From IMG/VR virus record IMGVR_UViG_3300031998_000004: a DNA stretch of 64,000 nucleotides. The stretch is one strand, 5' to 3'. A program made the position numbers and the translations under genes. Within the stretch, counting starts at the first letter, position 1. Each line of letters begins with the position of its first letter. A model generated the notes under the pieces. The model was not told the origin of the DNA. It saw only the letters and a list, made by a program, of their open reading frames with translations, and did no database searches. This DNA comes from a virus. Taxonomy: Duplodnaviria; Caudoviricetes. Positions 6,784-46,537 of this stretch are shown here, in pieces.

Positions 6784-6794
6784 TAGATTTGAAT

Positions 6795-30007: not shown

Positions 30008-30140
30008 ATTTTTTTGTATTAAATTTATTTATTCTTTCGCTTATATGTCAAAATAATAATGATATCGGTTTCTCAAATTAAAACCATGACTTAAATGAAT
30101 TTGATCGTTATTATTTATATGATTAAAACCATTATAGAAT

Positions 30141-31379: not shown

Positions 31380-31389
31380 ATATCAAAAT

Positions 31390-31417
31390 AAAAGGAACTC
31401 AAACGAGTTCCTTTTTT
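31390..31417. terminator. Bidirectional terminator ending the Met/Arg tRNA array
   Basis: AAAAGGAACTC-AAAC-GAGTTCCTTTT. Confidence 0.8.
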
Positions 31418-31424
31418 AGTAGTC

Positions 31425-31516
31425 CGCGAGTGTTAGATTGGATACCAACTGTCTCTTATTTGGAAAGTCTCAATAAATGGATTGTTTCGGATAAGCGTGA
31501 AATGTCACCCTCTCGC
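31425..31516 (-). ncRNA. tRNA-like RNA with extended anticodon arm
   Basis: GCGAG/CTCGC acceptor, GTGA/TCAC D-stem, CTTAT/ATAAG stem with 31-nt insert, GTTGG-TATCCAAT-CTAAC T-like arm. Confidence 0.5.
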
Positions 31517-31546
31517 CCTACCATTATAATATCAATATCATTTTTG

Positions 31547-31617
31547 TACCCTCAAGAGGATTTGAACCCCTACAATTTCTTTAGAAGAGAAATGTGCATC
31601 CATTACACCATGAGGGC
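31547..31617 (-). tRNA. tRNA-Arg(TCT)
   Basis: Cloverleaf; TTTCT-CT TCT AA-AGAAA. Confidence 0.9.
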
Positions 31618-31810
31618 GTGATGGGTACTTTTAAGAAACTCTAACTACTAGTGCACCCTCGCTAGAGAAGAACCGGAGACGTACCCTGCCTTTGTCCGAT
31701 TGCACACACCTTTTTTGTTTTGTAGCGGCGGCAGCTGCGACTGTAAAAATAGACTGTGTTCTGTCCTGTTTGAACTATTGTACCGATTTGCAGGTAAGTC
31801 TCAGTCTACT

Positions 31811-31904
31811 TGGTAGCGGCGGCAGGATTCGAACCTACGGGGGACTTATTGACAATGCCAGAGGGTTATGAGCCCTCGCTGTGGACCACTTCAGGTACGC
31901 CGCG
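31811..31904 (-). tRNA. tRNA-Met(CAT), initiator-like, with 22-nt variable region
   Basis: C1 mismatch, GGG/CCC anticodon stem, encoded CCA. Confidence 0.85.
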
Positions 31905-31912
31905 ATGTTTAG

Positions 31913-31987
31913 TAGCGGGAGTGGGATTTGAACCGCACGACCTCAAGGTTATGAGCCTTGCAAGCTACCTGACTGCTCTATCCCGCA
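31913..31987 (-). tRNA. tRNA-Met(CAT), initiator-like
   Basis: 1:72 mismatch; CAAGG-CT CAT AA-CCTTG. Confidence 0.9.
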
Positions 31988-31999
31988 ATTTTCTGGTTG

Positions 32000-32074
32000 T
32001 ACCGATAGGTAGACTCGAACTACCAACGACGGTCTTATGAGAACCGCGCTCTTATCCAGTTGAGCTATATCGGC
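32000..32074 (-). tRNA. tRNA-Met/Ile2(CAT)
   Basis: Cloverleaf, G1:U72 paired, anticodon CAT; elongator Met vs lysidine-Ile not resolved. Confidence 0.88.
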
Positions 32075-32082
32075 ATATGAAA

Positions 32083-32198
32083 AAGAATAGTGTTTTCTCC
32101 TTTATCTTATCACAACGCTATCTCAAGCGAACTATCCCTGATCAGTCTGACTCCTTGCTGTGTCGGGAGGTGGTTGTCGATCCACCATCTCTATTCTT
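32083..32198 (-). ncRNA. Unassigned multibranch structured RNA
   Basis: AAGAATAG/CTATTCTT closing helix enclosing GGTGG/CCACC, GAC/GTC and CGCT/AGCG hairpins. Confidence 0.4.
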
Positions 32199-32206
32199 AA
32201 TCGGTT

Positions 32207-32464
32207 TTATTCGTTCTTTGGAGCTCCAGAATCTACATTTTCTGTATCTTTGGCTTCTTCGTTGACCTTAACCTGAGCTTCCTTGAAAGCCTTCATCACA
32301 GCCGCACTCCTGGTATCCATCTTATAGTGCTGGATGACCTTTCCGTCTGGAGTAATCTGAATGTGGTCCTTCTGCATACCGCGGTGACGAATTTTGTTAA
32401 TCCTGTGACTCCTGGAATCTTTTGTTCCCTGTGTCTTTGCGACACTTCTTTTGCTTGCGTACAT
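32207..32464 (-). CDS. Hypothetical basic protein
   Basis: ORF track. Confidence 0.65.
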   Translation of the reverse strand: MYASKRSVAKTQGTKDSRSHRINKIRHRGMQKDHIQITPDGKVIQHYKMDTRSAAVMKAFKEAQVKVNEEAKDTENVDSGAPKNE

Positions 32465-32500
32465 AATTTATAATAATTGTTGTTAAACTTTGTTCAAATA

Positions 32501-32743
32501 TTATATACTAAATGGACTCCTGATCTTTAGTTTTAACCACCGTAAAAATTTTACTTCTAACCAAAGAGGAACAAAAAGAGGTCTTAATATATTAACTAAT
32601 ATAAATGAATTGATGTCATCAGAAGGGTTATCTTCTTCAAGTATAAAAGGGTTTACGTGATTTAACTTTGCAAACCCATACATGATTGGCCCGAGTAAGA
32701 TTAACCCACCAATTACTATCAATATAATCCACCAAATACTCAT
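32501..32743 (-). CDS. Small membrane protein
   Basis: N-terminal TM helix. Confidence 0.6.
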   Translation of the reverse strand: MSIWWIILIVIGGLILLGPIMYGFAKLNHVNPFILEEDNPSDDINSFILVNILRPLFVPLWLEVKFLRWLKLKIRSPFSI

Positions 32744-32868
32744 TCTTCTTCGTTGTCTTTTTTATTGTCCTCGTCTTCTAAATCATCTATATCGTATCCT
32801 TTCAATCCGTATTGTTTTTTAATAACATCACTTTCAATATCTCTTAACCATTCTTCCGTAGATTTCAT
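32740..32868 (-). CDS. Small acidic protein missing from ORF track (42 aa, MKSTEEWLRD...)
   Basis: Manual translation; ATGA overlap with downstream gene. Confidence 0.55.
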   Translation of the reverse strand: MKSTEEWLRDIESDVIKKQYGLKGYDIDDLEDEDNKKDNEEE

Positions 32869-32869
32869 A

Positions 32870-33205
32870 CTAAAATAATAACACGTCTTCTCCTCTCCAC
32901 TTACGTATTGTTCCATGTAAGTCCTGAGTCCTACATATCTCCATATACATCTCTTCAGTGTCTCCTTTGACGTATTCGTATGGCTCTACATCCTGTATAA
33001 GTTTTGGATTAAGAGTCTTTCCTGTTTTCTTATGAAAGTACTCCGCTTGCGTTGGTGTTACATTCTGAAAAGTACATACAGCCCAAAGAAACCAATCAAG
33101 GTCACGATCGATGACCTCTTCCATGGTCATACCTTTCTTTTTAGTATACCACCAACGTACTATTGGCCATTCACCAAATCTATTCTTGTCTATTTTGTGT
33201 CTCAC
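32870..33205 (-). CDS. DUF3820-like protein
   Basis: FG...KG.T.EEV...D.DW..W pattern. Confidence 0.5.
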   Translation of the reverse strand: MRHKIDKNRFGEWPIVRWWYTKKKGMTMEEVIDRDLDWFLWAVCTFQNVTPTQAEYFHKKTGKTLNPKLIQDVEPYEYVKGDTEEMYMEICRTQDLHGTIRKWRGEDVLLF

Positions 33206-33605
33206 TTGTATTAAAATTAGCAGCCCATTTTAAGGTTTCATCGTCAAGTTTTATAATAGTTGCATATCTAAAATCTTCATCAAAAACACCATATCCTATA
33301 CGATCACCTTCATATAAATATATTACCATCACATCAGTAACCATATGATAATTATATCGTTCTCCATCAGATTCTATCCAATATGTAACTATATTTCCAG
33401 CAGATTCAAAAGATATAATTTTGATATGTACAAAAGATACATCACTATCCAATAAATATCCCCTATCAGATTCATCGATAAAGTAACCTATAGGTTTTAC
33501 TATTTCGACATTCTTGTTGATAAGTTTATAATTAACTTCTGGTTCCTGTGCTGCTGCCAAAAAACCAAACATACAAAAGATAAGCGTAATAATAAATTTC
33601 TTCAT
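33180..33605 (-). CDS. Secreted protein with signal peptide
   Basis: MKKFIITLIFCMFGFLAAAQ (Bacteroidota-type signal, Gln after cleavage). Confidence 0.7.
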   Translation of the reverse strand: MKKFIITLIFCMFGFLAAAQEPEVNYKLINKNVEIVKPIGYFIDESDRGYLLDSDVSFVHIKIISFESAGNIVTYWIESDGERYNYHMVTDVMVIYLYEGDRIGYGVFDEDFRYATIIKLDDETLKWAANFNTSETQNRQE

Positions 33606-33665
33606 ATTGTAATATATTAAAAAAGGAGCCTTTATCAAGCTCCTTTTCTTTGTTTGTTTAATTCA

Positions 33666-35306
33666 TTAATAGTCCCAAACATGATAGTCAGTACCACTTA
33701 ATGTCCATCCAGAAACGAGAGCATTGAAGTTAACCACATCACCATCGAATCTAAAGTTGTAGATATACTTATTACTTGCTCCCCAAGATGCTACGTAGTC
33801 AGCATCCTGATCAGCATCCTTACCAGTATTGATTGTTCTAGTGATTTTACGATCGGTAAATACCACATCATCACCACTAGGGTTAGCAATGCAGATATCG
33901 AACACAACAGTGATATTCTGAGGAACCGGCTGGGGGATTACAAGAGAGTTACCAAGTACCACGTGGTCTCCAGTGAAGAGTGTGTCGGTCTGTGCACTTA
34001 CGTAATTGAGAGTAGTGTCTTTCTGTGTACCATACATGGCAGCAGGAGTATCAGTAAGAAGACTTGCAGTAGGAAGACGAAACCATCCATCTACATAAAC
34101 ACCTTCTGAACCGCTTGCGGGCACTGCAGGAACCGCAGCTACACCAGGAACCGCATCGTGATGTTCAATAGTGTGTTGAGGAGCAGCGTTACTATCCCAA
34201 CAGTTAAGACCAACTACTGTATAAGCAGCGCCATTTACAAATGCATCAATAAGAACATAGTCCCAAACATCTGGTTTACCACCACTGTTTGCGGGTTGAA
34301 TGTCATAGCCATTATCCTGAAGATACTTCCATCCATTGAAGAAATGCATAATTTCTCCACCAGTCATCTCAACAGCAAGGTCATACTCGGCTGGGATCGC
34401 CTTGTCTGTTTTTCTGAGTTGTTTGATAACATTGCTAGCCCATACTGTGTTACCCATATGGAGGTCATAGTCACCAGCAGCTCCATTATCAACTGTATAG
34501 TAAGACTTAATCTCTGCAACAAGAGCATCTGGGAGTGGTGCGGCGTTTGTGTAAGCACCCCAAGTATCTCCTTCTTTTACTCTTAATTTAGTTGCTGATG
34601 CAACAGCACTATAGGTCTTCTTAAGGTTTACCCAAGTATCAGTAGTGTCGTCATATGCAGGAACCTCAGGAACTGCAGCAACACCGGGGATAGAATCGCG
34701 ATATTCACCGAAACTGATCTGCTTTACTCGCACCCACTTGATATTAGGATTGATAACCTCACCACGGAACTGAAGCCATGAGAGAGCGTGTCTGAATGTG
34801 AGTTCTACACGTTCGTGCTCTGCACCAACAGCACCATTCTGATGATGATTGTAAGCGGTCTGTGCCCAAAGAACATCATCAAACCCATCGGGATCATCAA
34901 TAAGACTCTGTGTAAGAGCAGGGATATTTAATTTTAATGTATCGTTAACCCACTCAACAGTGTTGTCATACTGTGAGTATGCAGTAAATATAAAGTCGAT
35001 ACCTGTATAGTTATCGGACTTAGGCCAGTAGTAAGGACCACCGACGGCATTACCATCTTTATCATATTCTGCGTTCTTCATAAGATAACCACCGTTCACT
35101 GAAAACTCTCCAGGAACTACATAACCATAAACACCAAAATTGTCCTCCATTGCTGTGGTGTCTACAATAGCTTTAGTAGCAACAGAGGTGCCTGTGTTGA
35201 AGGTAATCTCTGATCTACCGAAGTTTCCGATTGTCATATCTTCCACCTTTGCACATCCGGCAAGGAGAAGCATAGCTGTAAATAAAATTGCAAAAAACTT
35301 TTTCAT
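33666..35306 (-). CDS. Fimbrillin family (type V pilin, Mfa-like) lipoprotein
   Basis: Lipobox LLLAGC, ATKA processing site, YYWP, LTFRHALS, C-terminal KYIYNF..V.GW. Confidence 0.85.
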   Translation of the reverse strand: MKKFFAILFTAMLLLAGCAKVEDMTIGNFGRSEITFNTGTSVATKAIVDTTAMEDNFGVYGYVVPGEFSVNGGYLMKNAEYDKDGNAVGGPYYWPKSDNYTGIDFIFTAYSQYDNTVEWVNDTLKLNIPALTQSLIDDPDGFDDVLWAQTAYNHHQNGAVGAEHERVELTFRHALSWLQFRGEVINPNIKWVRVKQISFGEYRDSIPGVAAVPEVPAYDDTTDTWVNLKKTYSAVASATKLRVKEGDTWGAYTNAAPLPDALVAEIKSYYTVDNGAAGDYDLHMGNTVWASNVIKQLRKTDKAIPAEYDLAVEMTGGEIMHFFNGWKYLQDNGYDIQPANSGGKPDVWDYVLIDAFVNGAAYTVVGLNCWDSNAAPQHTIEHHDAVPGVAAVPAVPASGSEGVYVDGWFRLPTASLLTDTPAAMYGTQKDTTLNYVSAQTDTLFTGDHVVLGNSLVIPQPVPQNITVVFDICIANPSGDDVVFTDRKITRTINTGKDADQDADYVASWGASNKYIYNFRFDGDVVNFNALVSGWTLSGTDYHVWDY

Positions 35307-35336
35307 ACGTAAATTTCTATTCTAATAATTTTTTCA

Positions 35337-36413
35337 TCAAAATACATCATAAGTGTGTTGTTTCCATTCGTTCAAGTCAATCCCGAATGTATTATCTCCT
35401 ACAGGCGTTTCTTTTTTTAATTCGGAGTTAAGAATGATTACTGTTATGACTCCACCTTTAGGATTTTCTTGTAACTGTTTCGTAATGTCTTTTGTACCAG
35501 TGACTTCTCCGTAATTATAAGTATCAACATCTATGTTGGTGTAATAAAGATAGTCAATCTGGGATGTCCAAGAGCTATTAATATCATCAGGCAACAGGTC
35601 CAAAATTGTAACTCGACTAGCAAACACAAGACTATCTGGTGTATGGAACTGCCCTGGTTTAATATCAAAAGTTGATATCTGTTTATTACCTGTCCAGACT
35701 GGGGTGTTTGTGAACATATTCTTTTTTGTTGATATTCCACTCACTGTGAAGTTTACTATGTCTCGAGCCTCAATCAGAGGACTATGATCGTCGTTAACTA
35801 CAATGAACTGAATGACATATATGTATGATACGGGTTCGAGCATTTCATCAATATTATACACATACACGAGTTTTCCATTCTCAATAACCTCTTCAAAATC
35901 TGAGATGTCATTTGAGAGATATATCTCACGTTTATTCATTGCGAACACCTCACCTGGTTGATTCACTGTCTCATACTCATTACTAATAGGATTTCTTGCC
36001 CGTGTGCTCTTTGTAGAAGGAGTTTCCACATAGTATCGCCCACCTTCGTAATAAGTCTCTGTCCAAGGATTATCTTTACTATATATCAACAAGTCATATG
36101 TGTTATTCAATTCAACATCAATGAGTTCCCTCTTTCCTGTCTGTACTCGAGTCTCGGATAAAATCTTTCCCTGATTGAAAATCACAACGTTACATGTTGT
36201 TGGAAGAGTATAAAAGAGTGGTCCATAAAGGTCTTCATCCCAGTTATACTTAAGGGTATCTTGCCATCCTTCCTTCCACATAGCATTGATGTTTGCTTGT
36301 ACCTGTACGTTAATCTTCAATGCAGTGTCTCCTTGGAGGTAGAGAGGTTTGCGCTCACACCCTATGAGTATACTCATTAATAACATTAATCCCAATACAA
36401 CTTTCTTCCACAT
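35337..36413 (-). CDS. DUF5119-like fimbrial accessory lipoprotein
   Basis: Lipobox ILIGC-ERKPL; DIT.QL...GG; FGID...W. Confidence 0.75.
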   Translation of the reverse strand: MWKKVVLGLMLLMSILIGCERKPLYLQGDTALKINVQVQANINAMWKEGWQDTLKYNWDEDLYGPLFYTLPTTCNVVIFNQGKILSETRVQTGKRELIDVELNNTYDLLIYSKDNPWTETYYEGGRYYVETPSTKSTRARNPISNEYETVNQPGEVFAMNKREIYLSNDISDFEEVIENGKLVYVYNIDEMLEPVSYIYVIQFIVVNDDHSPLIEARDIVNFTVSGISTKKNMFTNTPVWTGNKQISTFDIKPGQFHTPDSLVFASRVTILDLLPDDINSSWTSQIDYLYYTNIDVDTYNYGEVTGTKDITKQLQENPKGGVITVIILNSELKKETPVGDNTFGIDLNEWKQHTYDVF

Positions 36414-37624
36414 ATCAAATCAAATGTTAAATTAAATCCAACTTCGGTTGGACCAAAATAGTTCATATTAAATCGTCTTGGAACAAAGTCACTAGCTCGT
36501 AAGTACCAGTTATAATAGTATTTAGTATCCCATGGCTGAGAGGCGTGATAGGCATCAAACCTCGTATTAAACCATCCAATCCGACCATACAACTCAAACT
36601 TCCATCTCGGGTGTTTCTTACATTGGAATACATATCCGTATCCCAATCCACATCCATATACTTCTCCTTGATATCCCAGGTCTTTGTTCCAAGCGCAGAA
36701 GTCATAGATAGCGGTATTTGCATAAACTCCAATCCAATGCCCTGTGTACTTGTTATTAAGATATTTTCGGATACCCGCGATTCCATTCAAGAGTTGATAG
36801 TAGAAGTAACTGTCATAATCCTTATGCCACCAAGGGAACGTATAATCAAACTCAAGACTCAACCCCCACAGGTGTGTGTAGAGTTCTGCTTGGACGTTTG
36901 GTGTGATTGCAAGATCGCTCAAAAGATTCGTTTTAACAGCGAGTATTGGGATAACCTTAAGGTTTGGTCGAATTAGGATTGTATCGCGAAAATAGATAGG
37001 TTTTTGGATGAATATAGTATCGTGTTTGAGCTCGGTTAAGATTATAGTGTCTCTTTCGATTTCTTTCATCACTTCCTTTATCACTACCGTGTCTCTTTCA
37101 ATCTCTTTTATGACTTGTGGATATAAGAAATACACCTTAATATCAATTCTTCTGAGTCGTGGGAAGTACTTTTGATTAAGCTCTTTCCAATAGCCAGACC
37201 GAATAAGATCGTGTTTGACATCGTTGCTTGTAGAGAGAATCTTTAAGATTTTACCCTTCCAAGGTTCATTACTCGCTTCAATCAACTTATACAGCCCATC
37301 ATAGTCTTCCGATATAGTTATCTCGTCATCAAGATTCAATATATCACGAACCGCATCAACACGTCCTTGAGCGAGTGCTCGGTTGCCTGAATAAGTACCT
37401 TCTGGTGAAGCAGTACCTGTGATTTTAATATATTTGATGTCGTCTTGATGTTCTTGGATGAACGGGAGTTGACTATTGACGAACTCTTGATAGTTTTCAT
37501 CCTGGATGAACTCTGTAGTGTTGACTTTGAAGTAAAGTGTTGATGTCACTACGGTATCCCGTTGTTGGCTGTATCCGAGCCAACACATACAAAGTAAGGA
37601 CAATATGAGTAGAAGTCTGCGCAT
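36386..37624 (-). CDS. OmpA-like plus DUF3575 outer-membrane protein (fimbrial anchor/assembly)
   Basis: G.ASPEG...N..LA..R, FPRLRR, AVKTNLL.D, YFGPT. Confidence 0.8.
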   Translation of the reverse strand: MRRLLLILSLLCMCWLGYSQQRDTVVTSTLYFKVNTTEFIQDENYQEFVNSQLPFIQEHQDDIKYIKITGTASPEGTYSGNRALAQGRVDAVRDILNLDDEITISEDYDGLYKLIEASNEPWKGKILKILSTSNDVKHDLIRSGYWKELNQKYFPRLRRIDIKVYFLYPQVIKEIERDTVVIKEVMKEIERDTIILTELKHDTIFIQKPIYFRDTILIRPNLKVIPILAVKTNLLSDLAITPNVQAELYTHLWGLSLEFDYTFPWWHKDYDSYFYYQLLNGIAGIRKYLNNKYTGHWIGVYANTAIYDFCAWNKDLGYQGEVYGCGLGYGYVFQCKKHPRWKFELYGRIGWFNTRFDAYHASQPWDTKYYYNWYLRASDFVPRRFNMNYFGPTEVGFNLTFDLICGRKLYWD

Positions 37625-37638
37625 TTATATAAAATATA

Positions 37639-37665
37639 AGGATTCTTAAATAACTTTAAGAATCC
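37639..37665 (-). terminator. Terminator at end of the 10-tRNA array
   Basis: GGATTCTTAAA..TTTAAGAATCC inverted repeat; U-tract weak. Confidence 0.55.
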
Positions 37666-37669
37666 CGCG

Positions 37670-37741
37670 AGCCCCTGAGAAGAATCGAACTCCCATTTGA
37701 TGATTACGAAACATCCGTACTAGCCGTTATACTACAAGGGC
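37670..37741 (-). tRNA. tRNA-Thr(CGT)
   Basis: Cloverleaf, anticodon CGT. Confidence 0.88.
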
Positions 37742-37744
37742 ATT

Positions 37745-37820
37745 TGGTAGCAGTGGAACGACTCGAACGTTCAACCGACAACTTCAGAGGCTGCTGCTCT
37801 ACCAATTGCGCTACACTGCT
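37745..37820 (-). tRNA. tRNA-Gln(CTG)
   Basis: Cloverleaf, anticodon CTG, encoded CCA; acceptor atypical for Gln (A1:U72, A73). Confidence 0.85.
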
Positions 37821-37825
37821 ATCTG

Positions 37826-37899
37826 AGCAATCAACCGGGATCGAACCGATGTCTTATCCATACCAAGGATATGTTCTCGACCTGCTAAACTATGACTGC
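37826..37899 (-). tRNA. tRNA-Thr(GGT)
   Basis: Cloverleaf, TATCC-TT GGT AT-GGATA. Confidence 0.9.
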
Positions 37900-37904
37900 A
37901 TAAA

Positions 37905-38000
37905 ATAGTTGGAAGAGTGTTTGCTATAGACATTGACGATATGTTCTATATAATTTGTCAAAGAGGCTCTTATCGTATATTCGTCTACTATCCTAACTAT
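37905..38000 (-). ncRNA. Unassigned rod-like structured RNA in tRNA array
   Basis: ATAGTT/AACTAT, AAGAG/CTCTT, TTTG/CAAA, TATAGA/TCTATA nested helices. Confidence 0.45.
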
Positions 38001-38003
38001 TTG

Positions 38004-38074
38004 TACCCGGTAGAAGATTCGAACTCCTATGATCAGATCCGTATTCTGAAATCCTTCCATTGAATGAACCGGGC
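38004..38074 (-). tRNA. tRNA-Arg(ACG)
   Basis: TCAGA-AT ACG GA-TCTGA. Confidence 0.9.
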
Positions 38075-38102
38075 ATTAACCTATTGATTATTAATTACTT
38101 AG

Positions 38103-38177
38103 GGAGAAAGACGGGACTCGAACCCGCATAAACTACATCCACAGTGTAGTGCCTAAACCAATTCGGCCACCTCCTCC
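38103..38177 (-). tRNA. tRNA-His(GTG)
   Basis: G-1:C73, CTACA-CT GTG GA-TGTAG. Confidence 0.9.
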
Positions 38178-38183
38178 ATGTAG

Positions 38184-38257
38184 TCGAGAGACCCAGATTC
38201 GAACTGGGATTGGATCGGTATCAGCGATCTAGCCTTGACCTGTTAGCTGATCTCTCG
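38184..38257 (-). tRNA. tRNA-Ile(GAT)
   Basis: GATCG-CT GAT AC-CGATC. Confidence 0.88.
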
Positions 38258-38263
38258 AATTTG

Positions 38264-38335
38264 CAGGAGTTACAGGACTCGAACCCATATCGTTTGATTT
38301 GGAGTCAAAAATGCTAACCATTACACCAAACTCCT
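38264..38335 (-). tRNA. tRNA-Trp(CCA)
   Basis: TTTGA-CT CCA AA-TCAAA, G73. Confidence 0.92.
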
Positions 38336-38361
38336 GTATAACCTATTGATTATCAATGTAG

Positions 38362-38433
38362 TGCAGGTAACCGGAATCGAACCGACATCTCAGGAGTGGA
38401 AGTCCTATACACTAGCCGTTGTGCTATACCTGC
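38362..38433 (-). tRNA. tRNA-Gly(TCC)
   Basis: TAGGA-CT TCC AC-TCCTG. Confidence 0.9.
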
Positions 38434-38443
38434 AATTTATTCG

Positions 38444-38515
38444 AGCAGCATACTGGTAACGCTCCAGCGTCTCGACATTGGCAATGTCGCATAATTACTT
38501 TTATACGAATGCTGC
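38444..38515 (-). tRNA. tRNA-Gly(GCC), non-canonical D/T loops
   Basis: CGACA-TT GCC AA-TGTCG; T-loop AGCGTTA; D-loop lacks GG. Confidence 0.8.
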
Positions 38516-38520
38516 TTAGG

Positions 38521-38606
38521 AGTCTGGGATAGGACTCGAACCTACGTAAGTCATTGACTATCAACGGTTTTGCAGACCGCCTCCTGACCAACTCGGACAC
38601 CCAGAC
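38521..38606 (-). tRNA. tRNA-Cys(GCA) with 18-nt variable region
   Basis: GCGGT-CT GCA AA-ACCGT, U73, variable region TGATAGTCAATGACTTAC. Confidence 0.88.
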
Positions 38607-38610
38607 ATAA

Positions 38611-38624
38611 TATTTCAAAGATCA
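38611..38624 (-). promoter_or_regulatory. boxA-like antitermination element TGATCTTTGAAATA
   Basis: Resembles rrn boxA (TGCTCTTTAACA / GATCTTTGAAA variants); lies between attenuator and first tRNA. Confidence 0.5.
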
Positions 38625-38659
38625 AAAAAAATCACCCGAACTATCTCAGCTCAAGCGAT
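38624..38659 (-). terminator. Attenuator terminator of tRNA array 1
   Basis: ATCGCTTGAGCT-GAGAT-AGTTCGGGTGAT followed by T7. Confidence 0.8.
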
Positions 38660-38694
38660 CTCGTTTTATATGCGTAAAATTATTTTCTGAGACC

Positions 38695-38772
38695 TTACTT
38701 GAGCATAGTAGTGCGACCACACCAACCTTGATGCTGTCCGCGAATACCGATATGTCCAATGTTTGTTCTCAT
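38695..38772 (-). CDS. Putative attenuator leader peptide 1 (MRTNIGHIGIRGQHQGWCGRTTMLK)
   Basis: 25-codon ORF; 17 of codons 5-22 are read by the downstream array; 3' end complementary to terminator 5' arm. Confidence 0.8.
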   Translation of the reverse strand: MRTNIGHIGIRGQHQGWCGRTTMLK

Positions 38773-38803
38773 GTTATTATAATACAAAATATCTCTTAAA
38801 AAT

Positions 38804-39346
38804 TTAAACCTTCATATACTTTTTTATTATATCTTGTGCTTTTTTAGAGATTGTTCCAGGAATATATTCAAGTCCACTATCCCAACCAGCATCTTCAAGC
38901 TTCTTTATTGATGATCTACCATCACCAATACTTAACCATTTAATATATGGGTCCCAGTTAAAACATATATCAAAGTCGTTTGCATCATCTATGTCAGTAA
39001 GTGAAAATGTATATTGTCTTCCATTGCATATCTCTTGTGCTTCGTGACGCATGTATATTGTCTCGGGGCAGAGAATATAAATATCATAGTTATCAATATC
39101 TTCAACCGCAATATCTTCAACCGCAACTATACAATCGTCTTCATTATATACTACTTCATATTCATCATCAAGGTCTCCAAGAGTCACATTCGACTTATTA
39201 CCAAAGTACTTCTTACGCCTCTTCTGGTAGTACTCTTCACACTTCTTCCAATCGGGTTCATAGATAGTCACACCGTTGATTTTGATAGCAGATTTGATAT
39301 TGTCATTAAAGACTCCTTCGTTTATAAATTCACTTAAACTTTTCAT
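38804..39346 (-). CDS. Hypothetical protein, CTS-like N-terminus (MKSLSEFINEGVFNDNI)
   Basis: ORF track. Confidence 0.75.
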   Translation of the reverse strand: MKSLSEFINEGVFNDNIKSAIKINGVTIYEPDWKKCEEYYQKRRKKYFGNKSNVTLGDLDDEYEVVYNEDDCIVAVEDIAVEDIDNYDIYILCPETIYMRHEAQEICNGRQYTFSLTDIDDANDFDICFNWDPYIKWLSIGDGRSSIKKLEDAGWDSGLEYIPGTISKKAQDIIKKYMKV

Positions 39347-39349
39347 ATC

Positions 39350-39784
39350 TTACCATCTTTTCCATTCATCCCAACCACGTTGAGTAACACCTTTCTGATC
39401 CTGAGGAAGAGCACCGCTTTCGTAGAACTCTTTACTTACATGTACTCTTTTTTCTCCATACTTAACTGTATTTAAATACATCCAATACTTATCATCACCA
39501 ATTCTGTATCCTTTGACTGTTCCAAATCCTGGTAGCATGTCTTGCTCTACATCTAGTCCATCAACCTTTTTACAGTAGTTGATGATTCTAGCATAAAGAT
39601 TTCGTCCATCTTTAACTGTTACCGTCGAAGGATTTATCTCATACCACTCTCTACTACTTCCCTGATAGTCACGGCAAAGAGCAACCCCGTCTCCGAAGAA
39701 CTTCTTAATTACATAAGCAAGTTTCTCGGGAACTATTTTACTTTTGACGTTATCTGTAAAGAGACTTTCTTGTAGTGATTTCAT
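39350..39784 (-). CDS. Hypothetical protein, CTS-like N-terminus (MKSLQESLFTDN)
   Basis: ORF track. Confidence 0.75.
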   Translation of the reverse strand: MKSLQESLFTDNVKSKIVPEKLAYVIKKFFGDGVALCRDYQGSSREWYEINPSTVTVKDGRNLYARIINYCKKVDGLDVEQDMLPGFGTVKGYRIGDDKYWMYLNTVKYGEKRVHVSKEFYESGALPQDQKGVTQRGWDEWKRW

Positions 39785-41064
39785 ACTAAACTTTCTTGTA
39801 AGGATTTTGGTTTCATAGTGTATTTACTATAACCAATGATACGGTTGAGTGGAACGAATCCACCAGTCCACTTCATCATCTTGCCTTTATAACTGAATAC
39901 TATACCTTCGGCACTTCTGAGATTCTCTTCACCAATCTCCCTTAAAACATCTAACCACTTCTGTAAGAATTCGTTATCTTCGAGAGAACCTTCCCTTCTG
40001 ATCTTTTCGGTGGCAACTTTCAAATCACCAAGAAGACTCTTGATGGTTCCATCTTGCCCGTCATTAACAAAACCACTGGTCACTTTAATAACATCAGCAC
40101 CCATACTATAGAAGAAATTTTGAAGTGGTGTGAGTACAGTATTAACTACTTTACTAGATGTCTTATCAAGTTTAACAAAACCATCAAGATTATCCTGATA
40201 TATTGCTTTGAGGTCCTTGAGAGATGCAGCTGTCTTATCTCCAAACACCCATCTCCTACAACAATCCATTGCTGCTTTATGATCCTCGCCTAACCACGGT
40301 TCATATTTCTCAACCCATTTAAAGAAGAGACTATATTTGAGACCTTCTATAGTAACATCTGGAGCACAATCGCATTGTTTTAAGAACTTCTGCCACTCAC
40401 CCAACCATTTCTTTTCGAGTTTTGCAGTTTCCTCACTATACTTAATGATAACAGGAGGAGTGATCTTCGCATTGTCGATTCCCTCACAAGCCTTTTCCAA
40501 CACATCTAGTCCTTTCTTGGTTACTTCTGTATTCTTCCATTCACTATCACTTTCTTGTTTTTCGTATATCCATATATTATGAAAGTCTACTTGATCAGAA
40601 GGATAGGGAATAGTATTTGTAGTTCCTGCAAGGATACATTCGCAGTTAACAACAAGTCTCTTAAGGGGCGATGGATTAAACCACTCTGGTCCGATCTTCC
40701 TAAACACAGCTTCAATGATCTTACCACCACGCGTGTAGTTATCAAGAGCATGGGGATTCTCCTTCCATTGTTCTGCAAAATCACTTAATGTCATTCCACC
40801 TTTCTCACTATTGAGATTGGTTTTATTGCGAATGAATACGACATCCCCTTTAGGATTCATACTTGCTTGCATACCAAATCCATCCATCTTCTCTGTCATA
40901 CCTTCCATCTTGCCCCCGAACATGGTACGGATAAGTTCTTCGATATCATATCCAGTAAACTCATCCACATCATATGGATGGAGCATATGTCCACTTGCTC
41001 CACCTTCAAGAACTGGCTCATTAATAGATAGTCTTTCTGTAAAATATTGTGAAAAGTGTTTCAT
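39781..41064 (-). CDS. DUF6267-like protein with ligase/nucleotidyltransferase-like motifs
   Basis: EGGA.GHM.HP.D, TEKMDG (KxDG), EGIV, K.TG.F.P.N.I. Confidence 0.6.
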   Translation of the reverse strand: MKHFSQYFTERLSINEPVLEGGASGHMLHPYDVDEFTGYDIEELIRTMFGGKMEGMTEKMDGFGMQASMNPKGDVVFIRNKTNLNSEKGGMTLSDFAEQWKENPHALDNYTRGGKIIEAVFRKIGPEWFNPSPLKRLVVNCECILAGTTNTIPYPSDQVDFHNIWIYEKQESDSEWKNTEVTKKGLDVLEKACEGIDNAKITPPVIIKYSEETAKLEKKWLGEWQKFLKQCDCAPDVTIEGLKYSLFFKWVEKYEPWLGEDHKAAMDCCRRWVFGDKTAASLKDLKAIYQDNLDGFVKLDKTSSKVVNTVLTPLQNFFYSMGADVIKVTSGFVNDGQDGTIKSLLGDLKVATEKIRREGSLEDNEFLQKWLDVLREIGEENLRSAEGIVFSYKGKMMKWTGGFVPLNRIIGYSKYTMKPKSLQESLV

Positions 41065-42029
41065 TACTTAAGATCTTTAAATTTAGCCCCATTAAGGAGA
41101 ATATTGAGTGCGGATCCTGTATTTGCTGGAGCCGCGTCATCAGGTCCAGTTATCCCAGCACGATCAGTCTGTGGCATAACAGGACGTGGTGCTGCCCATG
41201 AAGGAGGAGTCTGTTTACGAGAAACAAATATGTCTCTATTCTTCTCTACAAGTTTGCCAATATCTTCTGCAGATTTGACATCTACACCAGCATCATTCAA
41301 ATACTTAATTGCATCTGCAAGTATATTATCGTGTCCTTTGAAAAGTTCTACAACGCGCTTTGCAAGCTTATCACCTTTAAGAGCGGAACCAAAGATATTG
41401 TTTTGAGGAGCAGCCTTACCAACAGGAAGTTTTCCTCCGTCCCCTTTATTAGGTTTACTATCATCACCAATAATAGCTGCAATCATTCCCTGAACTATTT
41501 TAAGAAAATCCTGCACAGGCTCAGGGCCTTCAACCACCATACAACTAACATGAGCATCTGGATTCATAAGTCCGACCTGACTCCATCTGTGATGACCATC
41601 AATAATCCAGTTTTTACCTTTATCCTTATATACAAGCACAGGTACTGCAAAGTTTGCTCCAAAAGCACTACCATCAAACATCTGTGGAATACATCTTACT
41701 CCCCAGTCCTTCGTCGCCCACTTTGCCGAGTTCTCAATATCGATTTCTGATTGTGTAGGATAGAGGTCTGCACAAGAGATACTCTGGCCAGGAGAGGCTG
41801 TATATTTCTTTCCTTCCTCATTCTGTCCGTCAAAGAGGTCTTTAAGAGCAGCCATCCAAAGTTTAGTATTATCTCCACTCTGTGTCTTTCCAAGAATCTT
41901 ATTTAGTTCATCAACAAAAACCTTCAAGTTGCCTTTCTTACTAAGGTCCTGAAGCATTTTATCACTGAGTTCTTTAACGTCTTCTGATTTTTCAAGCTTT
42001 TCAATTATATATTGTACAAGATGTTTCAT
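41064..42029 (-). CDS. ParB/Srx-like domain protein, CTS-like N-terminus
   Basis: LYPTQSEID, IIDGHHRW, PR..MPQ. Confidence 0.75.
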   Translation of the reverse strand: MKHLVQYIIEKLEKSEDVKELSDKMLQDLSKKGNLKVFVDELNKILGKTQSGDNTKLWMAALKDLFDGQNEEGKKYTASPGQSISCADLYPTQSEIDIENSAKWATKDWGVRCIPQMFDGSAFGANFAVPVLVYKDKGKNWIIDGHHRWSQVGLMNPDAHVSCMVVEGPEPVQDFLKIVQGMIAAIIGDDSKPNKGDGGKLPVGKAAPQNNIFGSALKGDKLAKRVVELFKGHDNILADAIKYLNDAGVDVKSAEDIGKLVEKNRDIFVSRKQTPPSWAAPRPVMPQTDRAGITGPDDAAPANTGSALNILLNGAKFKDLK

Positions 42030-42047
42030 GGATAAATAATCATCAAA

Positions 42048-42074
42048 AAAGGACCTCCCTTAAAGAGATCCTTT
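42048..42074 (-). terminator. Terminator at end of Ser/Leu tRNA unit
   Basis: AAAGGATCTC..GAGGTCCTTTTTT on minus strand. Confidence 0.7.
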
Positions 42075-42076
42075 CG

Positions 42077-42154
42077 TGGTAGCCCGGGTGGGATTCGAAC
42101 CCACATCTTTTTCGCTTTTGAGGCGAACACGTCTCCCAGTTGCGTCACCGGGCC
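42077..42154 (-). tRNA. tRNA-Leu(CAA) with short variable region
   Basis: TTCGC-CT CAA AA-GCGAA, A73, encoded CCA. Confidence 0.88.
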
Positions 42155-42160
42155 ATTATA

Positions 42161-42664
42161 CTATTTCTTCACAACCCAGTCAGCAAGAGTAGTGATAAGA
42201 GGACCGAAGGTCTTATAACGAACCTCGAATCCATATGACTCAAGCCATCCCTTTGAAGAAGCATAAGCTACATTGGAGCCAGCGTCTTCACGTGGGTTGA
42301 TATCAATGTCTATGTAACGGACAGGAACACCGCTTTCACGAATCCTCATGGCGACATCAAGTGATGCCTGCGTCTCAGCAGTCATTCTATCGAAGATTTC
42401 GGTCTTCTTGTAGCGTCTGGTCTTCCAACGACTGAACACACAGTGAGCGCCGTGCCCGTGTCCATCCCCATCACCTTTGTCATACATAGCGACTATAGTT
42501 GAGAATACAGTGTATGGTCCTTTGTTCTGTGAGTCGGTTCCAACCATCACATCAATATTCTGGTGGGTACTGTAGTACTCTTTCACATACTGCTCAATGT
42601 TGTCTAGCTTCTCTCCAGTAAACTTCTTAAATGAGAAAGCTCCATTTATCTTCTCTTGTTCCAT
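42161..42664 (-). CDS. RNase H-like YkuK/DUF458 family protein
   Basis: VGTDSQ, R...E...S, IDIDIN, AD. Confidence 0.8.
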   Translation of the reverse strand: MEQEKINGAFSFKKFTGEKLDNIEQYVKEYYSTHQNIDVMVGTDSQNKGPYTVFSTIVAMYDKGDGDGHGHGAHCVFSRWKTRRYKKTEIFDRMTAETQASLDVAMRIRESGVPVRYIDIDINPREDAGSNVAYASSKGWLESYGFEVRYKTFGPLITTLADWVVKK

Positions 42665-42687
42665 GACTATATTTATTTAATCTTTTG

Positions 42688-42776
42688 CGGAGAGCACTGG
42701 AGTCGAACCAGATCCGGGTTTTAACCGAACGAACCGCCTTCCAAACGGACGCCCTCACCGTCGGGCTTTACTCTCC
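42688..42776 (-). tRNA. tRNA-Ser(GGA)
   Basis: Long variable arm, G73, anticodon GGA. Confidence 0.88.
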
Positions 42777-42785
42777 ATTATAATG

Positions 42786-42874
42786 CGGAAGAAGGAGGAG
42801 TCGAACCCCAAGCCTTGTTTAAGGGCTCAATCCGCTTTCGAGACGGTTTCGGTCACCGTTCCGATTCTTCTTCC
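42786..42874 (-). tRNA. tRNA-Ser(CGA)
   Basis: Long variable arm, G73, anticodon CGA. Confidence 0.88.
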
Positions 42875-42882
42875 AAACCGTG

Positions 42883-42966
42883 CGGAGGGAAGAGGAGTCG
42901 AACCCCAGCCCAAAAGGACCAATCCGCTTTCAAGACGGTTCCCATCTCCGTCAGGGTTTGCCCTCC
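42883..42966 (-). tRNA. tRNA-Ser(TGA)
   Basis: Long variable arm, G73, anticodon TGA. Confidence 0.88.
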
Positions 42967-42975
42967 ACAGTGTTG

Positions 42976-43066
42976 CGGTGGGAGTGGGGCTCGAACCCAC
43001 GCGCCGGGTTTTAACCGACCTAACGGTTTAGCAAACCGTCCCCTTCACCAACTTGGGTATCCCACC
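42976..43066 (-). tRNA. tRNA-Ser(GCT)
   Basis: Long variable arm, G73, anticodon GCT. Confidence 0.92.
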
Positions 43067-43073
43067 GGGTACT

Positions 43074-43409
43074 TTATATCTCTTTATTCTGTAACATCCT
43101 CAGAGCTTCACGAGTACCAGGACATTTGTCATTGACATAGTCTTCATCGAATGCCCCGTTCTTGTCCCAACAAGCTTCTACGATTGCAATGTTGGAAACA
43201 ATCACACCATCGATATTTTTACTCAGACCTTTGATCGCGGGTGTGAGATCATCGATGTTGGCCGGTTTCTCTCGCCCGACTAGCCAGACTTCATTGTGTC
43301 TGGTTACAACCTGACCCCATGTGACCTTGAAGATGTTTTTAAGGAACTCTCCTACCTGTGGCGTCTTCTTACCACGTTTTGAAATGATAATGCTGTAAAC
43401 GTTATACAT
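43074..43409 (-). CDS. Hypothetical protein within Ser/Leu tRNA unit
   Basis: ORF track, A-rich upstream region. Confidence 0.7.
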   Translation of the reverse strand: MYNVYSIIISKRGKKTPQVGEFLKNIFKVTWGQVVTRHNEVWLVGREKPANIDDLTPAIKGLSKNIDGVIVSNIAIVEACWDKNGAFDEDYVNDKCPGTREALRMLQNKEI

Positions 43410-43449
43410 ACTTAATGTTTTGTTTTTTGTTTATTGAGTTATATATAAC

Positions 43450-43478
43450 AAAAAAGAGCTGCATCTTTTGTGCAACTC
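43450..43478 (-). terminator. Attenuator terminator of Ser/Leu tRNA unit
   Basis: GAGTTGCA-CAAAAGA-TGCAGCTC followed by T6. Confidence 0.8.
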
Positions 43479-43511
43479 CGAAAAAAATCACTCGTATACT
43501 AAATTGCACAA

Positions 43512-43577
43512 CTAACCGATAGTCCTATCGAGAGAACTACTCAATGACAATTCAATATTCGCATATGTTCTTTTCAT
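43512..43577 (-). CDS. Putative attenuator leader peptide 2 (MKRTYANIELSLSSSLDRTIG)
   Basis: Codons 10-15 TTG TCA TTG AGT AGT TCT match downstream Leu(CAA)/Ser tRNAs; TTGTGCAATTT after the stop pairs with terminator 5' arm. Confidence 0.75.
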   Translation of the reverse strand: MKRTYANIELSLSSSLDRTIG

Positions 43578-43581
43578 ATCC

Positions 43582-43657
43582 TGGAGCAGCACGCGAGATT
43601 CGAACTCGTACCTTAACCTTGGGAAGGTCATATGCTAACCACTAACACTAGTGCTGC
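43582..43657 (-). tRNA. tRNA-Gly(CCC)
   Basis: TGACC-TT CCC AA-GGTTA, U73, encoded CCA. Confidence 0.9.
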
Positions 43658-43689
43658 ATTTATGTAACTTATTGATTATCAATCAAATG

Positions 43690-44115
43690 CGGAAGGTAAG
43701 AGATTCGAACTCCTGGGCCGCTCACGCGACCAACGGTTTTCCTTACACACATTCCTTTCGGATCGTGGTCTGGACTCTATCTTAACCATATTGAAATCTT
43801 GCAAGATACCTTTAGCAGTGTTCCAATACACTATATTAATTCGGACTGGATTTCTTTTTAACCGAACTAAAGATAATTTCAACTTAGGTTCCTCCTGTAT
43901 AGTCTCTACACACTGTCTAACTTATCGGTCTCACTACGTCAAGCTGGGAATTACTCCAACTCCGGACTTAAAAGTTTTAACATTGGCTCGGTATTACCAT
44001 CAGCATTACCTGTTAAGGTTCTACCGAATTAGGGAGGTTCTACTTCTTTTCTTTCAAAAAGAGCACTCGAATTAAAAATCAAGACCGCCGCTTTAGACCA
44101 CTCAGCCAACCTTCC
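43690..44115 (-). tRNA. tRNA-Ser(TGA) interrupted by group I intron
   Basis: Exons 44115-44081 and 43741-43690 reconstitute GCGGT-CT TGA AA-ACCGT, long variable arm, G73. Confidence 0.88.
43742..44080 (-). mobile_element. Group I self-splicing intron (339 nt, no ORF) inserted after anticodon U34
   Basis: P AATTCGGTAGAAC, Q AATACCGAGC, R GTAGAGACTA, S AAGATAGAGTCC; P1 U.G pair at 5' splice site; terminal G. Confidence 0.88.
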
Positions 44116-44134
44116 AATATTTATATTAAAAATA

Positions 44135-44662
44135 CTAATAACCCTTCAATTCTTTAAGTTTCTGTAATTCCTTTTTTGGTAACTCCCGTAGAGTAGCTCT
44201 CCAAATATCTGTTTCTACTGCATCATCAAGTTGTAATCCAAATATTCCACCCGCGGTTTCCGGAAAGAGATGATTGCATATAGTTTGATAAATACTCGAC
44301 TGACCACCAAAGTTATAATACCAGCATCCCGACCATCCTTGGTGTTTATACCGTTCGATGTCTAATCCCATTATCTCTGCGAACGCATCTCGAATCTCAA
44401 TTGATCTTGTATGATTCATCCAACGAAGATAATCCGGATCTCTCTTGATGCGCTTCTCTATAGAAGTCCCTCTTAACACCATCCGCACCCAATTCATAAT
44501 CCTCAAGATGCACTTATTGTGGTCGCTCTCCGCAGCAATATAGTTTTTATACTCATGATCATCCGACTTTTGTATCTCTCGTCGAATCTCTCGTTGTCTC
44601 TCGGACAAGAGTTTGATCAGTCTGTTAAGTTCAATTACTTTACTTTTTAAGAATGGCGTCAT
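44135..44662 (-). CDS. Hypothetical protein, paralog of 45992-46486
   Basis: ILRIMNWVRMVLRGTSIE vs ILKIIQWVRYLLKGDSIE; start revised to MTPFLK. Confidence 0.7.
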   Translation of the reverse strand: MTPFLKSKVIELNRLIKLLSERQREIRREIQKSDDHEYKNYIAAESDHNKCILRIMNWVRMVLRGTSIEKRIKRDPDYLRWMNHTRSIEIRDAFAEIMGLDIERYKHQGWSGCWYYNFGGQSSIYQTICNHLFPETAGGIFGLQLDDAVETDIWRATLRELPKKELQKLKELKGY

Positions 44663-44773
44663 ACAAATATATATAACAAAAAAGAGAGCCTTGTTTAAGA
44701 CTCTCTTTTCTCGACACAACACCAATTAGTTATTTTGATATGAAGGATAGTTACCATAATTTGTACGGTTACT

Positions 44774-45304
44774 TCACACTTCTATATTAGTATTTTCGTC
44801 TGTTATAGCATAGTTATCAAGTGAATCCAATACCTTGAGATGATACACGTATACGCCAGATACTCCTGGATTGGGAATAGTGAATGGAACGGGAGTGCCT
44901 TTATCAATATTTGTATATTCCTGAAGATATACTTCATTTCCATTTATAACCTGATATAATACCGCACGCTTCACGCCAGTACCACCATCAATCTTAAACT
45001 GTCCATTGATAATCTCGCCTTCTTCAGCATTAAAATCATTATCTCCAATAAGATGAAGTGTAAGAGATAACTGTTCCACTTTTTGAACAAGATCTTCATC
45101 TTTAATACCAGTCTTCCACTGATACTCTTCGAAATTATTTTCGGTTTCGATGGCAACAGTTAATCCGCGACGTCTTCTGGCTATAGGTATATTTGCACAA
45201 GCTTCCTCTATTGATGACCATGGACCATAAAGCGCGTCTACATTGGCTACAGGAGACGTTACAAGAACCGGTTTTGATATATTAAACGATTTTGGCAATA
45301 CCAT
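44774..45304 (-). CDS. Tail-fibre-associated protein
   Basis: VDALYGPW.S..EA...IP...R..GLTV.I motif typical of Bacteroidota phage tail proteins. Confidence 0.55.
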   Translation of the reverse strand: MVLPKSFNISKPVLVTSPVANVDALYGPWSSIEEACANIPIARRRRGLTVAIETENNFEEYQWKTGIKDEDLVQKVEQLSLTLHLIGDNDFNAEEGEIINGQFKIDGGTGVKRAVLYQVINGNEVYLQEYTNIDKGTPVPFTIPNPGVSGVYVYHLKVLDSLDNYAITDENTNIEV

Positions 45305-45326
45305 ATATTATATGTATGATTTTTTT

Positions 45327-45929
45327 TTACTTAATAAATGATAAAGAAACATTGGTATTGGGGGATATTCCGGGAAAATATATTTCGTATAGATTATACT
45401 CGATATCATTAAGAACAAATGTCCCGTTTAATTTAACAAAATCATCAAGTAATGATTCGTTGTTTGCTGTTATGGCTTTGCTTATTCTATAGTTTTTATA
45501 TAACGCCACATATAAGTATTGTTGGCTTGTGCCAGTAACCACAGACATCGATGTTGTATGTGCGAGCGCAGGTACTCGTTCGGGTGCGGTTTGAATAGTC
45601 ACTGCTGTACTCAATGATCCGTAATAAGCGGGATAATCAAGTGTTTGAGGAGGTGTTGGTGTCCCACCATGATAACTAGTCCATTGACAAATAAGCAAGT
45701 CATTATATTCTATTGGATTACTTTCCCATAGAATATAATCTTCTCTATCAGCGAATGCTCTACATAGATTATTATCTATATCATCAAACACATATCCTAT
45801 ACGTGCTTGTAATGAGTCTTTTATAAATTTTTGTACCTTCTCACCGGACACTGGGCGTCCAAATGTTGATTCATCCCCTTCCCAATCCTGATGTTTGTTT
45901 ATATCAATATTCCAAATCTTTTTACTCAT
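45327..45929 (-). CDS. Tail-associated protein sharing N-terminal domain with the 2706-aa protein
   Basis: G.P.SG..VQ..IKD...IG...D..F.D....W...P in both. Confidence 0.6.
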   Translation of the reverse strand: MSKKIWNIDINKHQDWEGDESTFGRPVSGEKVQKFIKDSLQARIGYVFDDIDNNLCRAFADREDYILWESNPIEYNDLLICQWTSYHGGTPTPPQTLDYPAYYGSLSTAVTIQTAPERVPALAHTTSMSVVTGTSQQYLYVALYKNYRISKAITANNESLLDDFVKLNGTFVLNDIEYNLYEIYFPGISPNTNVSLSFIK

Positions 45930-45991
45930 ACATAAATAATAACAAAAAAAGAGACCCGTTAAGAGTCTCTATTGTAGAAATTCATTTTAGT

Positions 45992-46486
45992 CTATCCTAT
46001 AAATTCCAATATTTCTTTTTTGATTTCATGTAATCGAACCGAACCATAATCACCACCCATCAAATCAAATAAGCTCCCATCTCGAGGGAAGTACGTGTCT
46101 ACAATATGTAATATTAGATTTCGATATGTTATCCAGGTTCTCCACGAGGTGTGTTCAATCTCGCCTTCTTTCAATCCGAGCGCTTCCTGAATCCAAGGAT
46201 ATATATTTACGCCTTGATATCCTTTAAACATCCGCTGATTGATAAGCCCAGATGTTTTCATTGACGCGATCTCAATTGAGTCTCCTTTCAGTAGGTATCT
46301 CACCCATTGAATTATCTTGAGAATAGCTTGATCACAACACCTCTCCAAGTATTCGGGAGAATCAGAATGTGTAAGTTTACAGGATTTCCTTAATGTCTCT
46401 AGTCTCTCCATGAACTTTTGAAGTAGGTCAGTTACCCGATCAAGTGTCTCTCTGTGTTGTGAATCAAGATGATTTAAGTCGTACAT
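45992..46486 (-). CDS. Hypothetical protein, paralog of 44135-44662
   Basis: Shared motif; same upstream TTTTGTTATATA element. Confidence 0.7.
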   Translation of the reverse strand: MYDLNHLDSQHRETLDRVTDLLQKFMERLETLRKSCKLTHSDSPEYLERCCDQAILKIIQWVRYLLKGDSIEIASMKTSGLINQRMFKGYQGVNIYPWIQEALGLKEGEIEHTSWRTWITYRNLILHIVDTYFPRDGSLFDLMGGDYGSVRLHEIKKEILEFIG

Positions 46487-46537
46487 AAATTTATATAACA
46501 AAAGAAGGCCCTACCTTTAGTAAGACCTTTCTTATGG

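Follow-up and report, generated by a model that had tools for sequence, protein, structure and literature searches.

A possible ribosome-read attenuator, apparently derived from a small-protein gene, ahead of serine and leucine tRNA genes in a 240-kb phage genome

Several amino-acid operons of E. coli are controlled by leader-peptide attenuators, among them trpL, hisL, leuL, thrL, and pheL. The pheM leader attenuator acts on pheST, the operon of phenylalanyl-tRNA synthetase, by stalling at Phe codons. T-boxes, which occur mainly in Firmicutes, require no open reading frame (ORF); they bind uncharged tRNA directly, by means of a specifier loop and a UGGN bulge. To our knowledge, essentially nothing is known about the regulation of phage tRNAs. 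Phage tRNAs have been viewed as countermeasures to host tRNA-cleaving defences (PMC10264068, PMC11555353), and candidate sORF leaders have been noted in the 5' UTRs of Bacteroides (PMC7366714). Our literature search found no publication in which a leader peptide controls tRNA genes or phage tRNA arrays.

The window analysed here is a stretch of 64,000 nucleotides (bases 53845–117844) of a 239,809-bp IMG/VR virus record judged complete, a phage genome with a G+C content of about 36% and at least 37 tRNA genes. All features of the locus, i.e., tRNAs, leader ORF, terminator, and downstream unit, were on the minus strand. The upstream unit contained an intron-bearing tRNA-Ser(TGA) (43690–44115) and, as its final gene, tRNA-Gly(CCC) (43582–43657; ARAGORN, and Rfam tRNA with 47 bits), the CCA of which ended at 43582; both lay upstream of the leader, as originally predicted. 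They were followed by a 21-codon ORF, MKRTYANIELSLSSSLDRTIG (43512–43577, stop codon TAG at 43514–43512), the putative leader peptide, and then by an intrinsic terminator. The first gene past the terminator was an ORF of 111 aa without assigned function (43074–43409), found in the ORF list. Behind it came tRNA-Ser(GCT), Ser(TGA), Ser(CGA), and Ser(GGA) (42687–43066; ARAGORN and Rfam, with this second Ser(TGA) detected by Rfam only), an RNaseH-like ORF of the YkuK type (42161–42664; PF04308), and tRNA-Leu(CAA) (42077–42154; ARAGORN), with which the putative gated unit ends. The composition of this downstream unit, too, agreed with the prediction.

The intron of the upstream tRNA-Ser(TGA) measured approximately 339 nt and was placed by ARAGORN at position 37; the Rfam group I intron model gave 34.3 bits, short of its gathering score of 50. 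At the same place in the relatives L028, L045, L047, and L049 the gene was intron-less. Two genes downstream, a 427-aa ORF (39781–41064, minus strand) contained EKMDG, which by eye resembled the KxDG nucleotidyl-transferase motif of RNA/DNA ligases and, if ligase-like, would fit a tRNA-repair neighbourhood.

All three of the predicted pairings were recovered between the leader and the downstream unit. Regions 3 and 4 (43455–43479) formed a hairpin with a 9-bp stem and the loop CAAAAGA (−11.1 kcal/mol; pattern scan and folding), followed by a T6 tract (43449–43454), which placed a factor-independent terminator ahead of the genes that would be regulated. Region 2 (43480–43511), located by folding, directly abutted the leader stop codon and had two alternative partners: region 1, through 43507–43480, or the 5' arm of the terminator, through TTGTGCAATTT. 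Region 1 (43547–43575, codons 1–11) supplied the 5' strand of the long 1:2 helix (43575–43547 with 43507–43480; −25.1 kcal/mol), which was present in the MFE fold. The 2:3 helix joined TTGTGCAATTT (43511–43501) to GAGTTGCACAA (43478–43468) over 11 bp including two G-U pairs (−13.3 kcal/mol). These energies were computed on each element in isolation. The unconstrained fold of 43581–43430 (−38.4 kcal/mol, z = −2.9) was made up of the terminator and an inner hairpin besides the long 1:2 helix. In 30000–46000, no Rfam family, be it a T-box, a riboswitch, or a protein-binding leader, matched at E ≤ 1.

The locus resembles trpL, hisL, leuL, thrL, and pheL (for pheL, PMC3082878) in its short ORF with a run of putatively regulatory codons, its mutually exclusive 1:2, 2:3, and 3:4 helices, its intrinsic terminator with a U tract, and its stop codon near region 2. 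Unlike in these amino-acid attenuators, the genes that would be gated are phage tRNA genes and two ORFs rather than biosynthetic enzymes, the codon run mixes two amino acids, and the ORF probably descends from a protein-coding gene; furthermore, only 4 nt separate the start codon from the tRNA before it, a possible promoter sits behind the terminator, and an Rfam leader match is lacking. The closest logic is that of pheM-pheST, where a translation component for an amino acid is controlled by stalling at the codons of that amino acid; pheST encodes a synthetase, whereas here tRNAs would be controlled, making the loop one on tRNA abundance and not on charging. With T-boxes the locus shares a terminator/antiterminator decision that would report tRNA status, but neither the stem I specifier loop nor the antiterminator bulge was seen, and RF00230 gave no match in the Rfam search.

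At equilibrium, the full transcript kept the terminator at P ≥ 0.75 for every ribosome position; any switch must therefore be kinetic. The trp attenuator also relies on kinetic switching. Because full-length equilibrium folding did not discriminate between ribosome positions, it was replaced by ribosome-masked folding of a transcript ending ahead of region 4, and the probability that region 3 (the 5' arm of the terminator) is paired served as the readout. Without a ribosome region 3 was mostly unpaired (0.31), since the 1:2 helix formed; with a ribosome at codons 2–16 the value rose to 0.98, and at codons 18–22 it was 0.29–0.61. When the upstream part was shuffled with its dinucleotide content preserved, 7 of 400 sequences reached this switch score. 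A cruder version of the masked folding, applied as an empirical background to the 89 hairpin-plus-T-run sites of the genome, ranked the terminator at 43455 first for switch behaviour (0.04 free, 0.99 with the distal upstream part masked), the next-best differences being 0.42 and 0.32. By masked folding, shuffles, and genomic rank alike, 1:2 and 2:3 were mutually exclusive and dependent on ribosome position; the three-helix architecture is real and statistically unusual, and it recurred in diverged relatives. In the same crude test, the terminator near 38631 had its 5' arm paired at 0.83 and 0.74 with and without the upstream mask, i.e., no switch, a result to be taken as a flag only since the masks were fixed and not fitted to the leader of that terminator.

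The best single explanation of the locus, to which we give slightly less than an even chance, is a translation-coupled transcription attenuator read by the ribosome, standing where the Ser(TGA, intron)/Gly(CCC) unit gives way to that of the 111-aa ORF, the four tRNA-Ser, the YkuK-type ORF, and tRNA-Leu(CAA). In the mechanism that we infer, which involves translation of the leader, its coupling to the polymerase, and regulated read-through, polymerase arriving from upstream would transcribe the 21-codon ORF with its stop codon abutting region 2. Without a ribosome, regions 1 and 2 would pair and the terminator 3:4 would form; a ribosome at the last codons or the stop would cover region 2, and the terminator would form again. 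A ribosome held anywhere in codons 2–16, the Leu/Ser run included, would cover region 1, so that region 2 could pair with the 5' arm of the terminator and polymerase would read through. A sensor specific for Ser and Leu is a less likely sub-case of this explanation.

Close relatives were recovered neither from GenBank phages (megablast or tblastn, with the region or the 111-aa ORF as query) nor from IMG/VR (scans for the terminator, the 111-aa ORF, or the 196-aa ORF upstream), and homologues of the YkuK-type protein (up to 53% identity, in different contexts) did not lead to any. In contigs with an identical 111-aa protein the leader was 100% identical as well; the window version exists only in identical copies, and within-lineage covariation is consequently unavailable. 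Relatives were found through a 90%-identical neighbour protein (L026), a profile of the 111-aa ORF (L028–L032), HMMER (L033 and L045), and a tRNA-Gly(CCC) pattern (L044 and L046–L054). Almost all of these had a small ORF beginning 16–19 nt after tRNA-Gly(CCC), the exceptions being L033, without an upstream tRNA, and L045, with the small ORF behind tRNA-Ser(TGA). The Ser/Leu(CAA) tRNA block was downstream of the small ORF wherever the contig extended far enough. Behind the long forms of the ORF (48–53 aa, e.g., MKKTYVTPFTETVDLNLEQNLLNSSWDSSSSSSYSSRPSNCPCRNCPYGK), a terminator was absent, or only a hairpin with a weak T-run was present. Each short form (27 aa; ending in NSS(F/S)E in L026, L028, L044, and L053, and reading MKFEYIVPTIEVINADLDNSLLSSSDD in L048) was followed by an antiterminator, a strong terminator, and a homologue of the 111-aa ORF. 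Region 2 began 0–9 nt behind the stop codon (0 in the window, 7–9 nt in the 27-codon forms), and every short form kept an open frame as far as region 2. A 3-codon mini-ORF (ATG AAT TTT TAA; L053:255-266) stood between tRNA-Gly(CCC) and the 27-codon ORF in L053.

Both the L026 group (AAAGACCAA/TTGGTCTTT) and L048 (ATTGAAGGACTAT/ATGGTCTTTTAAT) had helix sequences unlike those of the window (TTGTGCAA/TTGCACAA), and L026, L028, L044, and L048 kept the plan of ORF, 2:3, and 3:4 with these other sequences. A joint alignment of all short-form leaders was too register-shifted for a formal covariation count, and each sequence was therefore tested singly. Region 3 was paired at 0.26 without a ribosome, 0.7–0.8 with a stalled one, and 0.24 with a late one in L026 (matched by 2 of 400 shuffles), and at 0.21, 0.90, and 0.34, respectively, in the divergent L048 (0 of 250 shuffles). 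L028 (26 of 400 shuffles), in which the three-state behaviour was weak, and L053 (80 of 250) did not pass the test; in L053 the antiterminator was constitutive, the default state, with the helices kept and the 1:2 state not. L026 and L028 shared approximately 96% identity over the element (codon 11 to the T-run), far above the adjacent gene (85.8% nucleotide identity, 79% at third codon positions); stem changes were wobble-compatible, and variation was concentrated in the antiterminator loop and codons 1–10. Together with the recurrence of the three-state behaviour, this conservation argues that the 2:3/3:4 alternative is under selection.

The same results weigh on the main rival reading, which we regard as unlikely though still deserving serious attention: an ordinary terminator-promoter junction beside a decaying gene, in which the hairpin and T6 would end the Ser(TGA)/Gly(CCC) unit, a promoter at TTGTTATATATAAC would serve the downstream genes, and the pairings would be non-regulatory. 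A plain junction does not lead one to expect switch behaviour that is first of 89 sites in the genome, rare among shuffles, and present in three diverged lineages with different helix sequences, an element conserved much above nearby neutral sites, or a frame open to region 2 in every short form. In its favour are the degenerate, shortened state of the window ORF and the absence of the attenuator from full-length relatives, both of which follow from the history of the ORF.

This history could be traced through a family of hypothetical proteins of 43–74 aa, in more than 100 clusters, which share MKKTYIxPxxExVxLxxxQxLLxxS (HMMER scan of 1.8 billion representatives and word-index search); the family has no Pfam or NCBIfam model, and neither collection had a credible match to any version of the small ORF. 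In bacterium-like contigs (family loci L036–L043), members adjoined large surface-type proteins (CHB_HEX_C_1/Fn3_assoc, LRR_5/Dockerin, Big_2) or were the last gene of a row, opposite a convergent gene, and in those examined there were no tRNAs nearby. The tails of the family are variable and often Ser/Asp-rich or Cys-containing, and the layout resembles a leader-plus-core peptide. In the long forms of the phages (L031:2287-2439, L032:272-424, L030:2322-2477, and L033:1148-1294) the Cys-rich tail was conserved, and its presence also in the more distant P0010 and P0011 indicates a real protein. It follows that the short forms are truncations of a small-protein gene.

The window ORF aligned to the N-terminus of the family (MK[KR]xY...L.L...L; 33% identity to L031) and occupied, after tRNA-Gly(CCC), the same position as the 50-aa members in related phages. 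It was the most degenerate copy, with 21 aa, five codons missing, and the conserved P8 and E11 lost, and it was without the whole C-terminal part of the family, e.g., SNCPCRNCPYGK. It has neither the complete N-terminal motif nor the 43–74 aa by which the family is defined and is, judged by its sequence, a relic and not a full member. Full-length members are without antiterminator and terminator, whereas the window copy has both. Apparently, then, the leader was not purpose-built but is a truncated N-terminal relic, co-opted once a terminator and an antiterminator had arisen behind it.

Initiation on the leader is a difficulty for ribosome-read attenuation. The ATG at 43577 lies only 4 nt past the CCA of tRNA-Gly(CCC), and the sole purine-rich stretch nearby, AGGA, is 1 nt away from it, which makes a translation start at this codon doubtful. 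The relatives have an A/T-rich spacer of 16–19 nt between the tRNA and the small ORF; the window leader is almost without a 5' spacer, and because of the short distance to the 3' end of the tRNA, initiation would need the tRNA-Gly to be unfolded or cleaved off. The poor start context is a further point for the junction reading. It would also suit a real switch that is controlled without the ribosome, e.g., through an RNA-binding protein of phage or host, an sRNA, or tRNA-Gly processing, with the ORF incidental. We hold such a factor to be improbable. The RNA-level conservation and the switch statistics need no translation, and the antiterminator is the default state in L053; against this, the stop codon precedes region 2 by 0–9 nt in all short forms with the frame open, and no Rfam family for such factors matched the locus.

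Read-through of the leader TAG was considered because relatives carry a tRNA with the anticodon CTA (amber-suppressor type, labelled 'Pyl' by ARAGORN), which lies directly upstream of their 112-aa gene (L030:3377-3448 and L031:3377-3448; also in L046, L047, L049, and L052). It was unsupported: TAG ended 24 of the 256 long ORFs of the genome (TAA, 177), and no tRNA(CTA) was found in this genome. Outside the window, the genome has a tRNA with the anticodon TTA, of the ochre-suppressor type (G000:C1:45766-45839).

Codons 10–15 of the leader (43550–43533) read TTG TCA TTG AGT AGT TCT and are cognate to Leu(CAA), Ser(TGA), Ser(GCT), and Ser(GGA), exactly as in the original prediction. Runs of at least six Ser or TTG codons occurred four times in all six frames of the 240-kb genome, the leader run among them. 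Codons cognate to the downstream tRNAs made up 6 of 21 in the leader vs. 7.4% expected from genome codon usage (p = 0.003), in which Ser accounts for 6.2% and TTG for 1.1%. A codon-matched sensor, in which stalling at TTG, TCA, AGT, and TCT when charged Leu(CAA) and Ser tRNAs run short would open the gate, e.g., after host tRNA cleavage, and the phage would then make exactly those tRNAs, is rather unlikely in our judgement. In its support, the six cognate codons are consecutive and lie where stalling gives an antiterminator probability of 0.98, and no publication on such a loop was found. Short forms also gained Ser codons relative to long forms (VDLNL to VSLSL, and F to S in L028), and the L026 codons AGT, TCG, and TTG match its own Ser(GCT), Ser(CGA), and Leu(CAA).

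The composition of the leader, however, seems at least partly, perhaps largely, inherited from the protein family, because full-length homologues without a terminator are already rich in Ser and Leu: a long form has 5 cognate codons in its homologous first 27 and 13 Ser in 50 codons overall. The synonymous shifts TTG to TTA in L044 and L053 and TCG to TCA in L053 lead away from cognate codons and argue against strict selection on them. In L026, the change from AAT to AGT makes the 1:2 helix stronger as well, so that RNA pairing could explain it; CTC and CTT of the run have no tRNA in the unit. In the folding model, moreover, a stall anywhere in codons 2–16 had the same outcome, an open gate. 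Of the attenuator as originally proposed, the three-helix switch and the conservation of the element hold up, and the part resting on codon matching is weakened by a Ser/Leu run that is in part inherited, by a gate that any stall in codons 2–16 would open, and by the possible promoter behind the terminator together with the short distance from the tRNA to the ATG. That a Ser/Leu-rich gene stump in a jumbo phage of a Bacteroidota-type host became a leader gating four tRNA-Ser and tRNA-Leu(CAA) by stalling at cognate codons is a speculative proposition, more probably wrong than right.

The caveat attached to the prediction, a promoter-like motif overlapping the U-tract, was borne out as far as the motif is concerned: TTGTTATATATAAC was present at 43438–43451, overlapping the T tract, as a recurrent post-hairpin motif that is kept in relatives, and a role as an independent promoter is only possible. 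The conserved motif behind the terminator is of the TTTGTTAT type, and TTTTTTGTTATATATA occurred twice in the window, each time after a terminator. Genome-wide, TTTGTTA was found upstream of ORFs 16 times vs. 3.4 expected, and modules of a hairpin with TTT(G/A)TTAT(T/A).. precede many genes of this phage. A similar TTTGTTA(T/A)... motif stood ahead of the 111-aa gene in all relatives, and its presence in the terminator-less ones suggests a function of its own, possibly as a promoter. Both the frequent modules and the terminator-less occurrences favour the ordinary junction. The motif often abuts the ATG by 1–8 nt, which fits a −10 box and a 5' UTR poorly and speaks against that reading.

A host-type Bacteroides promoter (−33 TTTG/−7 TAnnTTTG) was not fitted by the post-terminator motif in the window. 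The recurrent intergenic module consists of a G+C-rich hairpin with a T-run merging into (G/A)TTAT(T/A)ATTTATA(C), often 1–8 nt before an ATG (window positions 44711–44668, the region of 45929–45950, 46486–46520, 5083–5120, and 6750–6790, and many further genome sites). As there is no room for a promoter between an efficient terminator and the ATG, the module hairpins may be leaky or the mRNAs leaderless.

If the locus were an ordinary terminator, the analysis would still define a large family of unannotated small proteins and, for this phage group, a recurrent module of hairpin plus motif. The locus also offers a traceable case in which a protein-coding gene gave rise to a regulatory leader; in related phages, full-length, truncated, and degenerate copies share one position. 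A ribosome-read attenuator placed before tRNA genes would sense decoding capacity directly. In the codon-matched version, it would give the phage feedback on a shortage of tRNAs, e.g., following attack by a host anticodon nuclease, and no earlier leader-peptide attenuator is known to act on tRNA genes.
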